DNA of 24,408 nucleotides from Nanobdellota archaeon (GTDB lineage Archaea; Nanobdellota; Nanobdellia; SCGC-AAA011-G17; GW2011-AR20). A program made the position numbers and the translations under genes. Position 1 is the first letter of the stretch. Every line of letters begins with the position of its first letter. Below, in pieces: positions 691-5,739 of the stretch. The stretch is from the NCBI GenBank assembly GCA_018819375.1, contig JAHJQH010000071.1, positions 1-24,408 on the forward strand, given 5' to 3'. The notes beneath the pieces were generated by a model. It saw only the letters and a program-made list of their open reading frames with translations, had not been told where the DNA came from and did no database searches.

Positions 691-1367
691 TAACTATAGA
701 AGAACAGCAATCATTGTTGCTGAACATTTCAAACAAGCTAAAAAAAAGAATAACAATTTATGCAATAGGTGGGACAGCTATGATGTTTCTTGGATTAAAA
801 GATGCAACCTTGGATATTGACCTTGTGTTTGATACAGAAAAAGAAAGAGAAACCTTCATTAATACTGCAAAAGATTTAGGTTACATAAAAGCAGACCCCA
901 TAAAGATTTATGGAAAAAAGAAAAACCAGCCAGAAATGCTCACCTTAGGCGAGCATAGGTTTGACCTTTTTCTAAGCGAGGTGATTCACTTTTATTTTTC
1001 AGAAGATATGAAAAAAAGAGCAGTAAGAATTTATGAGATAGGAAAAAACCTTATTCTCAAAATAGCAGATCCTCAGGACATACTTCTTATGAAATGTGCA
1101 ACAGACAGGATGAAAGACAAGGATGACGCAAAATCAATAATAGAAGAAACAAAAATAAATTGGGAAATACTTATAGACGAGGCAAAAAATCAGGTTAAGT
1201 TAGGTAAAGAAAGGGCTTTATTTGATTTGGGAATTTTCCTTGATGACCTGAAAAAAGCAAAAATAAAAATCCCGGCAAAAGTTCTGGACGAGATATATAA
1301 GCTGGTAAATGCACAAATAAAACGGAAATCGAACAGGCAGATTTTTATACTGAAAAGTCTTAAATAA
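687..1367 (+). CDS. Nucleotidyltransferase, DUF6036/AbiEii-like
   Basis: IGGTAM...TLDIDL polymerase-beta-type NTase motif and later KCAT.RMKDKDD motif. Confidence 0.75.
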   Translation: MITIEEQQSLLLNISNKLKKRITIYAIGGTAMMFLGLKDATLDIDLVFDTEKERETFINTAKDLGYIKADPIKIYGKKKNQPEMLTLGEHRFDLFLSEVIHFYFSEDMKKRAVRIYEIGKNLILKIADPQDILLMKCATDRMKDKDDAKSIIEETKINWEILIDEAKNQVKLGKERALFDLGIFLDDLKKAKIKIPAKVLDEIYKLVNAQIKRKSNRQIFILKSLK

Positions 1368-1372
1368 ACTAA

Positions 1373-1747
1373 ATGAGAAATACAATATTTTTAGTTGGAT
1401 TGTTAGTAATTCTGTTATTCATTAGTGGGTGTGGTGCCCAAATTGAAACCCCTTCAAATGTTTCAAATAGTCTTGCCTCCCCCAAGCAAGATGAAAAAAT
1501 AAATAATCAGATTGAACCATCTATTAAAGATATGTATGGAGAACCCTGTGAAAGTCTTGAAGATTGCGGGGAGTGGATACCAATCTCAGAACCAGAATGT
1601 TTAGGGAATAACCTATTTCAAAGATTTAATAAAACAAGATGTTTGCCAAAAGATGCAATGCATATAAGGGAAACAAATACGATAGAAAGAGATTTCACAA
1701 CCATTTGTAAATATCAAGCTGTTTTGGAGAGAATAGGGAGTTGTTAA
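1373..1747 (+). CDS. Small Cys-rich secreted/lipoprotein-like protein
   Basis: Hydrophobic N-terminus ending in the lipobox-like ISGC; six further Cys. Confidence 0.6.
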   Translation: MRNTIFLVGLLVILLFISGCGAQIETPSNVSNSLASPKQDEKINNQIEPSIKDMYGEPCESLEDCGEWIPISEPECLGNNLFQRFNKTRCLPKDAMHIRETNTIERDFTTICKYQAVLERIGSC

Positions 1748-1752
1748 AATAA

Positions 1753-2120
1753 ATGGGTGTTTATTTAACTAAGAAGATGGTAAAGAAGAACCTTAATCAA
1801 CAAGATTTAAAAAAGCTTTATAAAAGATATCTGAGAAATAAAGCAGACTATAACTTTAATATGGGCATATTCCTTGGAATAGTTTTTGGAGTTGTTATTA
1901 ATATTTGGGCGGTAATGCTTTATGAAAACTATCTTAAACAAGCCAACCAAGTGAAATAAAAAGATTTATTTTGTGGGGGGCGGTTATCATAATAGTTATA
2001 ATTATCCTTTTAACGATAAGAATAATAAAAAGAAGGATAGAAAATTTTAGGATTGTAGAGATTTTAAATGAACAGAATGAAGAACGACCTCCTTACTCAA
2101 ACCCAAAAATTTTATTGTAA
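1753..2120 (+). pseudogene. Two-TM membrane protein interrupted by a frameshift near 1945-1950
   Basis: ORF 1753..1959 stops, but the -1 frame is open from 1950 to TAA 2118-2120 and reads SEIKRFILWGAVIIIVIIILLTIRIIKRRIENF...PKILL (a second TM helix). Confidence 0.6.
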
Positions 2121-2190
2121 CTAGATTAGATAGGGATTAATCTTAACCCTCACCTCAAACATCTTGATCATCCCCCACAAAAACCCAATC

Positions 2191-2199
2191 ATATATAAA
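2191..2199 (+). promoter_or_regulatory. TATA box for the PIN gene
   Basis: ATATATAAA lies 23 nt upstream of ATG 2223. Confidence 0.5.
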
Positions 2200-2222
2200 T
2201 CATTAGATTAAACTAATTTTTC

Positions 2223-2825
2223 ATGAAAAATAAGATTATGATATTTAGTCATTTTAAGGGGGGAATAATAAAAAAGTGTTTTGGGGTCGGTTTAGATGCA
2301 GGAGTTCTTATTGCACTCATAACAAATCCAATAAAATCAAAGGAAATTTTACTTGAAGATTTGCAGGAACAAAAAGATTTGCTTTATACTCATCCTATAG
2401 CTTTCCAAGAAGCAAGAAGAAGATTATACAGGGGATTTAATTATTCTTGGGAAGAATCATTAAAGGTTCTAAAGAATCTCAAAAAGGAGTTTAACATTAA
2501 AGAAGTTTCATTAATAAAAAATAATCCAAAATTAAAAGAGCTTGATAAGTTATGTGAAAAAGATAATTGTGATGCTGGGGACAATGACAAAAAGATAATA
2601 TCCGACTTTAAAGAATCAGGTATTTTCCTCACTTATTCCAACAACAATCATTTTATTCGAGCATCAAAACTCATAGGATTAAATTCAAGAAAATTTCCAT
2701 CAGATGATAAAATCCTAAAAAAGAAGTATTATGACGCCTTGATTAACAAACCTAAACAAAAGAGGGGTCGGAGTAGATTTCGAAAGCCTTTTCTCGGTTT
2801 CCTTTTGCCTTTTCTAAGGATTTAA
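2223..2825 (+). CDS. PIN-domain (VapC-like) nuclease
   Basis: VGLDAGVLIAL (first acidic site), PIAFQEA, GDNDKKII and LTYSNNNHF in PIN-fold order. Confidence 0.6.
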   Translation: MKNKIMIFSHFKGGIIKKCFGVGLDAGVLIALITNPIKSKEILLEDLQEQKDLLYTHPIAFQEARRRLYRGFNYSWEESLKVLKNLKKEFNIKEVSLIKNNPKLKELDKLCEKDNCDAGDNDKKIISDFKESGIFLTYSNNNHFIRASKLIGLNSRKFPSDDKILKKKYYDALINKPKQKRGRSRFRKPFLGFLLPFLRI

Positions 2826-3075
2826 ACCAGAACTCTTTTCTATCCTGCTCTATCCCTTCTGTTACCGCTTTCATCTTTCTTTCATCCACATTCAACATAG
2901 ACCAAAGTTCAAAGTTTATAAGTGCTTTTTGCCTTTTCACTCCCTCTTGGACAATTTCCTTGACAATATCCTTAAAAACAGGATTATCCTGAATATCCTG
3001 AACAATTCTTTGTTCTATTTCCTCTATATAAGTATTAGAAAATATTTCGATATTGTTGTTTAAAATGGATTCCAT
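2752..3075 (-). CDS. Hypothetical acidic helical protein, convergent with and overlapping the PIN gene by 74 bp
   Basis: 107-aa ORF with protein-like composition. Confidence 0.6.
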   Translation of the reverse strand: MESILNNNIEIFSNTYIEEIEQRIVQDIQDNPVFKDIVKEIVQEGVKRQKALINFELWSMLNVDERKMKAVTEGIEQDRKEFWFKSLEKAKGNREKAFEIYSDPSFV

Positions 3076-3186
3076 ATGAATAACCTACTTATCTGCTTAT
3101 AACACAAACATATCAATTGTTGTTACATTAACATCAATATTGATAGTATATAAAGTTTATTACTACGCAAAATATAGGTGATTCCA

Positions 3187-3309
3187 TCACTTCTTCTCAA
3201 AAAGTTCAACCTGGTCGCTGTCTTCCAAGATATGCTCCAAACCAACTTGTTAACTACTGAATCTTGCACTCTTTCCCCAAACCCTCGCATACCTGAACTT
3301 CTTAATAAA
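3187..3309 (-). pseudogene. Decayed C-terminal TGS-domain fragment of a DRG/Obg GTPase
   Basis: Reverse strand translates FIKKFRYARVWGKSARFSS*QVGLEHILEDSDQVELFEKK*, matching the end of 4831..5739 (YARIWGPSAKFDGQQVGMEHILEDGDVVELFENR); one in-frame TAA; no start codon. Confidence 0.85.
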
Positions 3310-3431
3310 AAATATGCCAAGAAAGAGTTAAACAAGCGAAAACACCCATAAAAAAGTCCAAATGGTCTTTTTATTCCATCTTAAAAGATACTCACTCTTT
3401 CTTCTCATTTAGTAAATTATTCATTTTAAAC

Positions 3432-4565
3432 TTATTCCATCCTAGCTAAAATATCCTCAAGAGATGTAGAAACATACCCAATACTCTTATCTGACGCACC
3501 ATAAAAATGAGTTATGAATTTTTTATCTGAAGATAAAAAATGGGAAGTAGGGAAAACAACACCCTCATGACAAATTACGCCTTGTTCAAGTTCCCATAGT
3601 TCTTCTGGTTTAATAAGAGGTTTATAAGTTCTCGCAATTATCTTCTGAGGATTATCTGAGTCTGCTAAAGCTACTCCTAAAACATATTTCATTTTTGGTT
3701 TTATAATAGCACCATGATAAAATATTAATGTTCCTTCTTCTATCTCAACTGGTTGTCCTGCTAACCCAATATGACTTTTCTCCCAATCATATTCTTGTCT
3801 TAACAAACTAAAATTATCGATATTCTTTACAACTTTTTGCCAAAATTCATGTTTTGCAAGTTCTAAAAAGTCCTTAACATACACAATTTGAATATCTGGG
3901 AGAAGTCTAATTAGAACGCCATAATGTTCTTCCCCATCTACCAATATTTTTTTGGGCCAAATTGAACAATCTTTTGTATCTAAATAAAAAGGAGTTTTTG
4001 GAGTGAATAAATTACCTTTTGCTTTAGATTTTATAATGTTGGTTTTATGAACATAACCCCATTTTTCTTTATATCTCCTTACAGGAACGAGGTTTATAGA
4101 TTCTTCAGCCGCGATATTAGGAAACCACACACCAAAACTATGCCAAGATAAAGAATCTTCCAAATCCCCCTCATTTCTTATATATTCTGTTCTAGCATTA
4201 TAACCATCATAATGAACCAAAAATGCATGAACAACATCTTCTCCAGGGGTGGTAGCAAATCTTAAATCTTCCACCCCACGATAACCATAAGGTTCTTCGG
4301 GAATAAAAATAGCTCTTTCAGTATCTTCTAATACCTCAACAAAACCTTCATCATTTAATTTGGCATCATACCTTACAATAGCTGAATTATCACCATGCTC
4401 ATCACCATAAATAAGCCTGCCAAAGATTAATAACTTGTTGGGGTTACAAGGAAAAACAGCTGGATTGGTAATTCCCTTTCTTTTGAACTTTTTAGTTAAA
4501 GGTAAGCCAGGAACAGGTCTATCTTTATCACCTTTAATTGTCATTACCAATTGTTTTTTACACAT
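3432..4565 (-). CDS. GH130-family glycoside phosphorylase/hydrolase (DUF377-like beta-propeller)
   Basis: Motifs ITNPAV, GVEDLR, TKDCSIWPKK, HIGLAGQPVEIEEGTLIFYHG, VVFPT, FYGASD; real start probably ATG 4565 or 4544, since the track start at 4712 lies in the repeat. Confidence 0.8.
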   Translation of the reverse strand: MCKKQLVMTIKGDKDRPVPGLPLTKKFKRKGITNPAVFPCNPNKLLIFGRLIYGDEHGDNSAIVRYDAKLNDEGFVEVLEDTERAIFIPEEPYGYRGVEDLRFATTPGEDVVHAFLVHYDGYNARTEYIRNEGDLEDSLSWHSFGVWFPNIAAEESINLVPVRRYKEKWGYVHKTNIIKSKAKGNLFTPKTPFYLDTKDCSIWPKKILVDGEEHYGVLIRLLPDIQIVYVKDFLELAKHEFWQKVVKNIDNFSLLRQEYDWEKSHIGLAGQPVEIEEGTLIFYHGAIIKPKMKYVLGVALADSDNPQKIIARTYKPLIKPEELWELEQGVICHEGVVFPTSHFLSSDKKFITHFYGASDKSIGYVSTSLEDILARME

Positions 4566-4673
4566 ATTTAATAATCTAAAAATAACCTTCTTAAGGTTAT
4601 CTGAAAAAGATATTTTATATATCTCACCCCCCAGCATACAACCCAGCCACACCTTTTTGAGCACACAACGAAA

Positions 4674-4717
4674 AAAGGTCTGTTGAACCCTACCTGTTCT
4701 CAAAAAGTTCAACTACA
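4674..4717. repeat. 44-bp exact direct repeat, copy 1 (duplicate of GTPase 3' end plus stop)
   Basis: AAAGGTCTGTTGAACCCTACCTGTTCTCAAAAAGTTCAACTACA is identical at 4815-4858. Confidence 0.95.
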
Positions 4718-4814
4718 CCTTTGTAAAAACATAAACGAGCGTCAGCGAGCAATGCAAGATGTCGCGAAGCGAGATCTGCTCCGCATACAAGGTAGGTTCA
4801 CCTTGTCAAAGAAG
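4718..4814. mobile_element. 97-bp hairpin-rich non-coding element between the 44-bp repeats (MITE/REP-like or integration scar)
   Basis: GC-rich core with hairpin AGATgTCGC-GAA-GCGAgATCT (4757-4777) and perfect ACAAGGT-aggttc-ACCTTGT (4787-4806); no ORF of its own. Confidence 0.45.
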
Positions 4815-4858
4815 AAAGGTCTGTTGAACCCTACCTGTTCTCAAAAAGTTCAACTACA
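4815..4858. repeat. 44-bp exact direct repeat, copy 2 (overlaps the GTPase stop)
   Basis: Identical to 4674-4717. Confidence 0.95.
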
Positions 4859-5739
4859 TCCCCATCTTCCAAGATATGTTCCATTCCTACCTGTTGCCCG
4901 TCAAATTTAGCAGATGGCCCCCAAATTCGAGCATAAGGCTGTTTTTTAGAATTTATACCGGTTTTTTTATTTCTCTTGATGAAATCCTTGTGGATTCTCA
5001 TTGCAAAATCCCTCACATTACTTCCAGCAGAAAGGGCAACCGGAATGCCAGTCATCTTTTTCTTGTTCCTGTCTTTTGTATGAATCTTAATCAACCCCAA
5101 ACTTTTCCATATTCTTTCCCTTGCTTCATCAATCCCAAGTCCATTTTCCCCTTTCAGTCCAACTACAATGCTTTTCTTATGAATGTCATTTTTCTCTAAC
5201 TCGGATTTCACGAGCTTGACCTGTTTATCAACATCCCTCAGCATGTCCACAACAAAAATAACAACATCACACATCCTGATAACACCCAAAAAACTAGGCC
5301 CATTCTCAGTTTCATAATAATTCCTGACAATTGCGGGAACTTCAACAACCTGTACCTTAACACCAGAATAATTCATAATTCCAACTTCTGGTTTGAAAGT
5401 GGTAAAATCGTGCTCACTTACTTTGACCTTAGCTCCAGTAAGTGCTTTCAGCAAAGTGCTCTTTCCTGAATTAGTCACTCCGACAAGGCAGACACAGGCA
5501 TCACCCTCTCTCTTAACACCTATCCCGCCCCCCCCTCCTTTTTTTCCTTTTTCTTTTTTCAGCAGATCTCTTGCCTTAGCTAACTTCCTCTTTATCTCAT
5601 CTCTTAATTTTTCAGAACCTTTATGAGAAGGAGCAGTGGAGAGCATTTTCTGAAGTGCCTTAATCCTCTCTTCAGTAGTTTGTGCTTCGTGATACCCTTC
5701 CTCTGCCAATCCATATTCATATGTTGCATTAATCGGCAT
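4831..5739 (-). CDS. DRG/Obg-family GTP-binding protein with TGS domain
   Basis: APSHKG N-terminal motif, G1 GVTNSGKS, G2 FTT, G3-like EVPA, TGS YARIWG..AKF.GQ.VG.EH.LEDGD.VE. Confidence 0.93.
   Translation of the reverse strand: MPINATYEYGLAEEGYHEAQTTEERIKALQKMLSTAPSHKGSEKLRDEIKRKLAKARDLLKKEKGKKGGGGGIGVKREGDACVCLVGVTNSGKSTLLKALTGAKVKVSEHDFTTFKPEVGIMNYSGVKVQVVEVPAIVRNYYETENGPSFLGVIRMCDVVIFVVDMLRDVDKQVKLVKSELEKNDIHKKSIVVGLKGENGLGIDEARERIWKSLGLIKIHTKDRNKKKMTGIPVALSAGSNVRDFAMRIHKDFIKRNKKTGINSKKQPYARIWGPSAKFDGQQVGMEHILEDGDVVELFENR

Follow-up and report, generated by a model that had tools for sequence, protein, structure and literature searches.

The DNA between a GTPase gene and a GH130 glycoside hydrolase/phosphorylase gene of this archaeon harbors one unit of a GC-rich double-hairpin repeat family that is specific to this lineage. 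The unit is enclosed by a long direct repeat, the right copy of which is the working 3' end of the GTPase gene and the left copy of which is a displaced duplicate of that end upstream of the GH130 gene. We tentatively favor the view that an out-and-back template switch between copies of a second repeated hairpin module (M3) put the unit behind the GTPase gene, in which case the gene end would have been duplicated as a by-product. All positions given without a contig refer to the window, i.e. the whole 24,408-nt stretch of DNA that was analyzed; the genome to which it belongs is a 0.7-Mb assembly of 98 contigs (designated C plus a number) that is 85% complete.

The 44 bp at 4674-4717 recur exactly at 4815-4858, at a distance of 141 bp from start to start and with an overall length of 185 bp for the feature, just as the initial annotation had it. 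Leftward, the similarity reaches 4666 and 4807, which extends the pair to 52 bp (R1, 4666-4717; R2, 4807-4858; neither with an assigned strand) with mismatches at 4669 and 4673. Aligned locally, this 52-bp pair scored 94, a value that 1000 random intervals of identical geometry in the genome all failed to reach. The duplicated stretch runs from the middle of the neighboring M3 hairpin to nine codons into the GTPase gene: R2 opens with the 3' half of one M3 copy (M3b, 4807-4826) and holds, next to the start of the spacer, the GTPase stop and last nine codons (4831-4858), and R1 consists of the 3' half of another M3 copy and the displaced duplicate of the gene end. Three further features that the initial annotation had read from the letters were found where it had placed them. 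These are the motif GCGAAGC at 4764-4770, a perfect 7-bp hairpin at 4787-4806 with the loop AGGTTC, and a segment nearly complementary to the repeat, namely the 14-mer 4788-4801, which is a near-complement of both 4683-4696 and 4824-4837 with two one-base offsets. Its description of the interior as much more GC-rich than the surroundings was right in direction and overstated in degree, because the enrichment is only moderate, with GC fractions of 0.47 for the interior and 0.55 for the core at 4736-4806 versus 0.33 and 0.40 for the flanks (genome, 0.36). A bulge-helix-bulge reading of the repeat pair does no better than chance; a plus-strand motif can be drawn at the 141-nt spacing, but by our estimate chance would provide one for about half of all repeats of such length, and there is no gene on the plus strand.

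The unit between the repeats reads on the plus strand. An AT-rich linker (4725-4735 in direct reading; on the minus strand, a T-rich tract that follows the hairpins) leads to an anchor motif of two GCGAGCA-like heptamers (4735-4751), of which the genome contains 14 copies within 2 substitutions, all located in repeat clusters. The anchor is followed by a first hairpin of variable type (4754-4779), which contains the GCGAAGC, and by the second hairpin (4787-4806), the loop of which is common to the whole family. Other members share this layout, in which a 17-nt anchor precedes a variable first hairpin and a short constant linker joins the latter to a second hairpin with constant AGGTTC loop, and the last base of the window unit, 4806, is the same base at which the copies on C7 and C90 end. 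Close copies of 4736-4806 are present on three other contigs (97% identity over 71 nt on C90, 98% over 51 nt on C4, and 96% over 26 nt on C7), with the longer first hairpin of the GCGAAGC subtype being common to the window, C90, and C4. The initial annotation had proposed a small dispersed element as one possibility, and this result bears it out in the form of a non-coding, hairpin-forming repeat.

Conserved pairing was evident as well. We built a covariance model from seven simple units, in the alignment of which 97% of cells are paired and 5 of the 13 pairs are changed on both sides; the score of this alignment was reached by none of 500 shuffles, and slid registers scored far below it. The AGGTTC loop occurs with five different stems. 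Within its own genome the model detected about 20 units on 8 contigs, with compensatory changes, and the interior of the feature is thus not unique. The initial annotation had named a unique interior and a lack of conserved pairing as grounds for refutation, and neither applies. The window unit itself was recovered over its full length (4734-4804) at 16.6 bits (E 0.04), with typical units scoring 70-88 bits. Outside this genome, no unit was found with the model in 26 other genomes of the same family or with a DNA search in 40 relatives, and when metagenome contigs were searched for the pattern of the repeat, all matches came from the same organism. Scanning genome contigs with an 18-mer was of little use, since the probe was too short and gave chance matches in GC-rich bacteria. 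At the present site the unit is antisense to both adjoining genes (GTPase and GH130) and is probably without function.

GC-rich clusters of units are located on C4, C17, C90, C74/C75, and C96, and those on C4, C17, C90, and C96 are mosaics built from a few hairpin module types. Nested modules and fusions at short shared motifs prevail in these other clusters, with M3 residing within the first-hairpin loop on C4, C17, and C90 and with chimeras fused at a common GAGCAC motif on C17 and C7. Most clusters are sense-oriented within ribosomal-protein operons (uS17, L24/S4e, L4, and the rpoD-to-L18e spacer) or ahead of tRNA genes; on C17, the L24-to-S4e spacer is filled by a 420-bp cluster. In addition, units are read in frame within uS17, L24, L4, and a class I tRNA synthetase, where they contribute to the N-terminal extension in uS17 and to the C-terminal tail in L24 and L4, in each case in the same frame (C17 segment 53-113 and 1305-1721; C96 2596-2698). 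Compared with C17 1500-1720, one 84-nt unit of the cluster is missing from a JGI metagenome contig of the same organism, which reflects either copy-number variation or assembly collapse. Other tandem families were observed on C2 (4256-4600), C82 (1700-2180), and C58/C67, with a 69-nt period by tRNA-Glu, a 60-nt period, and a 50-nt period of a long M3 form.

Copies elsewhere in the genome are also abutted by direct repeats. On C7 (3315-3379), a decayed double-hairpin unit adds 24 in-frame codons to the anticodon-binding domain of a class I aminoacyl-tRNA synthetase; the insert lies between conserved synthetase motifs and has AAATCAAT on both flanks, with an abutting repeat of 8 nt and a period of 73. 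The unit of C74/C75, which is in frame in an ORF, has an abutting repeat of 15 nt with a period of 102. Of note, the large ORF at C74 1-2018 has an intein splicing domain (PF14890), its double-hairpin unit is near the contig end, and C74 and C75 end alike. On C90 (8811-9047), a 135-nt block of family modules with TGCCGGAG on its flanks interrupts a tRNA-Leu gene in the D-loop (8-nt repeat, period 135). A perfect 5' acceptor strand lies upstream of this block, ARAGORN detects the tRNA only once the block is removed, and just a weak, relaxed bulge-helix-bulge motif can be drawn there; in the whole genome, ARAGORN found only 17 tRNA genes. Exact abutting repeats of at least 8 nt are expected by chance for 0.4% of random intervals, which is an optimistic figure since some element boundaries were set partly from the flanking repeats, and no flanking duplications above chance were found at the large clusters C4, C17b, and C90. 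The duplication lengths (8, 15, 8, and 44-52 bp) vary, and this variation speaks against a transposase with a fixed stagger.

The junctions at the present locus involve the M3 module. In this genome, 13 M3 copies lie within 7 substitutions of a 31-nt consensus, none do so in shuffled genomes, and the loop of the module is conserved while its stem is variable. The intact copy in the window (M3a, 4652-4685, plus strand) has the stem CCTTTTT/AAAAAGG and the conserved loop, differs from the consensus by 5 substitutions over 4652-4682, and has its 3' half inside R1. Right at the junction of R1 and the interior, the plus-strand heptamer CCTTTGT (4718-4724; frequency of this 7-mer, 1.2e-4 per position) equals the start of the M3 consensus and forms the 5' half of M3b, the 3' half of which begins at 4807 with the start of R2. 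A second M3 copy is therefore split in two around the unit and its AT-rich linker, as though these were nested in its loop. The exact identity of R1 and R2 begins at 4674, within the conserved 3' stem of M3, and both mismatches of the 52-bp pair fall in its first 8, M3-derived bases (chance, 28/1326 = 0.02). This placement of the mismatches fits a paralogous M3 better than a diverged duplicate.

A template switch between M3 copies could have produced these junctions as follows. During replication or break repair, the growing strand would have departed from the home locus at 4717 and annealed by a few bases ahead of another M3 copy that already bore a nested unit. From this donor, both M3 halves and the unit between them would have been copied, after which the homologous M3 3' stem would have led the strand home to a position 44 bp behind where it had left, so that the gene end was copied twice. 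The bases left of 4815 would in that case derive from the foreign M3, which would explain the mismatches. Such a process would not require a dedicated transposase or integrase, and it would leave the GTPase gene with an intact end. The microhomology at the out-switch amounts to just about 3 bases, and no M3 that holds this unit nested in its loop, as predicted for the donor, is present in the assembled 85% of the genome.

The same gene end appears to have been involved in an older event. The GTPase gene (4831-5739, minus strand, stop at 4833-4831), which encodes a protein of 302 aa with MMR_HSR1 and TGS domains, ends inside R2, and since its orthologues in 28 of 30 related genomes align up to residue 298-301, the present gene end has the native length. 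The orthologous loci have just 42-52% identity and are not syntenic downstream, and the GTPase was not found in a search of metagenome contigs. For the neighboring GH130 gene (called at 3432-4637, minus strand), only two weak partial matches were obtained among 26 genomes of the same family, and by this distribution it looks like an acquired gene. Its called start at 4637 falls in GC-rich, repeat-adjacent DNA (4560-4637). Because there is a TATA-like AT-rich stretch at about 4606-4620 and there are in-frame ATGs near 4560, the sequence suggests that the actual gene is shorter than called, with a true start possibly nearer 4560. Just past the GH130 stop, we found a decayed relic of the GTPase 3' end (3190-3303, minus strand) of 38 codons with one in-frame stop, which is 66% identical to the GTPase C-terminus (E 5e-10; 68% at the DNA level over 103 nt). 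The homology between relic and gene ends two codons ahead of the present stop, and beyond that point the gene runs into family-like sequence and M3a. Since the relic sits just beyond GH130, the 1.6-kb GH130 segment is itself bracketed by copies of the gene end, and the sequence comparison indicates at least two duplications of the GTPase 3' end around inserted DNA. A bolder reading, which strikes us as doubtful, is that the family represents a hitherto undescribed class of mobile element in archaea that possesses no gene itself. Such an element would spread by copy choice (on DNA, or through an RNA copy of the highly transcribed ribosomal-protein/tRNA operons that house most copies), colonize essential genes in frame, and leave duplications of 8 to >50 bp, with the GH130 insertion as a larger product of the same process; if this were true, the process would also import genes.

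The junction anatomy expected from a template switch is equally predicted by a route in two steps. Slippage at ACA would first have generated a 66-bp tandem duplication of M3 together with the gene end (4652-4717), and a unit would then have taken the place of about 7 bases in the loop of the second M3. Tandem module duplications and insertions into hairpin loops are both common in this genome, but the route requires two events, and 3-4 changes would have to be confined to the 21 M3-derived bases with the other 44 identical. It would account for the mismatch pattern less well than a template switch, and we consider it unlikely, if the least unlikely of the alternatives.

We are also doubtful about a transposition-like insertion, in which an enzyme with widely staggered cuts would have inserted an 89-bp non-autonomous element and the 52 bp would be its target-site duplication. 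A dispersed copy with a duplication abutting both ends is what such an insertion would look like, and the abutting repeats at other copies point in the same direction. However, the duplications are unequal in length (8, 15, and 44-52 bp), the units are mosaic and nested rather than bounded copies, and the interior is without terminal inverted repeats, none being found to join 4718-4730 with 4794-4806. Moreover, a search of the 85%-complete genome for Y1/HUH transposases, reverse transcriptases, Cas1, and TnpB gave no hits, and the RAYT-type Y1 profile PF01797 had no match in this genome, with controls positive in 6 of 14 genomes. The initial annotation had linked the GCGAAGC hairpin to HUH enzymes; with no Y1/HUH transposase found in the 85%-complete genome, and with the motif confined to one subtype of the variable first hairpin, this link is not supported.

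Another proposal of the initial annotation was a structured RNA. In its strongest form, the unit would work as a small RNA or as an RNA signal in cis (such as a hairpin bound by a protein in ribosomal-protein and tRNA transcripts) that serves here as an antisense or 3'-end element for the GTPase mRNA, which we regard as improbable. At the family level an RNA role is possible, in view of the constant loops, the covarying stems, and the sense orientation of most clusters in ribosomal-protein operons or ahead of tRNA genes, but no Rfam family matched at gathering or E-value thresholds. Likewise, it is at odds with such a role that the window unit is antisense to its two neighbors, that copies are in frame inside ORFs, and that the family is absent from the 26 genomes of the same family; the duplication would also be left unexplained. 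The complementarity of the 14-mer to the gene end would suit a guide-like role, but this is unlikely since the 14-mer is intrinsic to a subtype that occurs at unrelated loci. We rejected a C/D-box or K-turn reading of the modules as well, having seen no box motifs in an inspection by eye only, and a CRISPR array, in view of the irregular spacing, of 'spacers' that recur as repeats, and of a Cas1 search without hits. No tRNA or tmRNA was found in the window.

Less probable again is that site-specific or Campbell-type integration left a scar at the GTPase 3' end, with the repeats as attL and attR of an element that was nearly all lost or of an integrated 141-bp circle. The duplicated part is the 3' end of a gene, as for many integrative elements, the same gene end was duplicated earlier around a GH130 gene that is rare in the family, and two Xer-like tyrosine recombinases are encoded elsewhere in the genome. 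Against this, merely 89-97 bp lie between the repeats (97 bp between the exact cores), with no ORF for a recombinase or other element gene among them and no recombinase nearby, and the interior is a resident chromosomal repeat. The inverted arms within the repeat, 7 bp long and 18 bp apart, are unlike recombinase cores. Furthermore, the repeat, the unit subtype, and the unit pattern were absent from viral contigs and the region had no match in phage or plasmid records, collections that hold few elements of such archaea. The attP-like scar suggested in the initial annotation thus has little support, also because the left part of the repeat is a module of the repeat family and not plain target DNA. 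As to the two Xer-like genes (about 245 and 275 aa, on C60 and C66), one lies about 900 bp from an M3-like module cluster and the other adjoins a Cbf5-like gene.

Finally, we considered whether the duplication might be present in no cell. From shared 141-nt contig ends and the contig name of a twin assembly, we infer that a de Bruijn assembler with a largest k of 141 was used, and the repeat period of 141 equals this k. Among 136 local exact direct-repeat pairs of at least 20 nt in the whole genome, however, the present pair is the only one with a spacing of 141, and each 141-mer across the interior links portions of both repeat copies. Indirect support comes from independent Logan k=31 contigs (run SRR6514730), the product of a different assembler, which are identical to the window over 906-4703 and from 4829 onward. 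The last 31-mers that still have one unique base next to each repeat copy are 4673-4703 and 4829-4859, and a break of the k=31 graph at exactly 4703 and 4829 requires two left and two right contexts of the 44-mer in the reads. Over 6 kb that include the feature, a second MEGAHIT assembly (46-kb contig of ERZ27247117) shows no difference. We give very little credence to a k=141 artefact, which is unlikely because the independent k=31 contigs stop at the bases predicted for a 44-bp repeat with different flanks, and the assemblies point to a duplication in real genomic DNA.

Very small archaeal genomes are usually described as streamlined and repeat-poor. This 0.7-Mb genome nonetheless carries about 20 copies of a structured, GC-rich repeat and a second module family, the two being mutually nested, at locations that include ribosomal-protein operons, sites ahead of and inside tRNA genes, and in-frame positions in essential proteins. 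The present locus is the most informative copy for how the family moves, because both junctions and a long duplication have been kept. If the template-switch reading is true, the repeats would give rise to local duplications, and perhaps to the gain of genes, in such genomes. In practical terms, they fragment assemblies and cause tRNA genes to be missed.

The locus illustrates how such repeats spread and is not a new kind of system. With respect to mechanism, templated insertions of the FoSTeS/MMBIR type, in which microhomology-mediated template switching leaves a flanking duplication, are known mainly from eukaryotes and bacteria. What they have in common with the present feature is an insert copied from elsewhere, a site duplication of variable length, and short junction homologies, as we infer here from one locus. 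Some integrative elements leave a second copy of the 3' end of the gene that they target, an example being the 44-bp att core of SSV1 in a tRNA gene, and the present locus resembles them in having a direct repeat of a gene 3' end around inserted DNA, with an intact gene and an identical core on both sides (here exact over 44 bp); in contrast to these elements, the locus lacks an integrase and genes of an element, and a resident chromosomal repeat forms its insert. A transposase-mobilized MITE would differ from it by its terminal inverted repeats and its fixed, short target-site duplication. The REP/BIME sequences of proteobacteria are mosaic elements with RAYT (HUH Y1) transposases. The archaeal family is similar to these in its clusters of few hairpin module types in varying order in operon spacers, but no RAYT/Y1 gene was found here, units are also present inside ORFs, and the host is an archaeon.

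Rickettsia palindromic elements (RPE) are hairpin-forming repeats of about 100 bp in a reduced genome, which are inserted in frame in essential protein genes and are also found in spacers and RNA genes. To our knowledge, RPE are not GC-rich mosaics of nested modules, and we know of no description of long flanking duplications for them. These elements are mentioned in PMC1779305. Hairpin-forming repeats of similar size, in frame in essential genes of a reduced genome, are what the archaeal family shares with RPE; there is no homology to the archaeal units, and the nested GC-rich mosaics and the long duplication are features of the archaeal family.

By description, the family belongs to the class of repetitive hairpin-forming elements, as it consists of short GC-rich hairpin units with compensatory changes that are dispersed, tandem, or nested within a narrow lineage and reside in spacers and in genes that are left intact. 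Repetitive hairpin-forming elements, double-hairpin elements, and GC clusters have been described for the mitochondria of sponges, Allomyces, and yeast, as set out in PMC2800124 and the works that it cites. These repeats are short GC-rich units with one to three hairpins in an AT-rich, compact genome, occur singly, in tandem, or in multi-repeat motifs, are located in spacers and inside genes, are limited to close relatives, and encode no enzyme, all of which resembles the archaeal units. For some of them, PMC2800124 or the works it cites give flanking duplications as absent or irregular. The archaeal family differs by its host, an archaeal chromosome, by the lack of any sequence relationship, by its constant anchor and loops, and by the 44-52-bp duplication at this locus. 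Altogether, and with no sequence in common with any of them, the family behaves like the mitochondrial hairpin repeats and GC clusters, the RPE, and the BIME mosaics.
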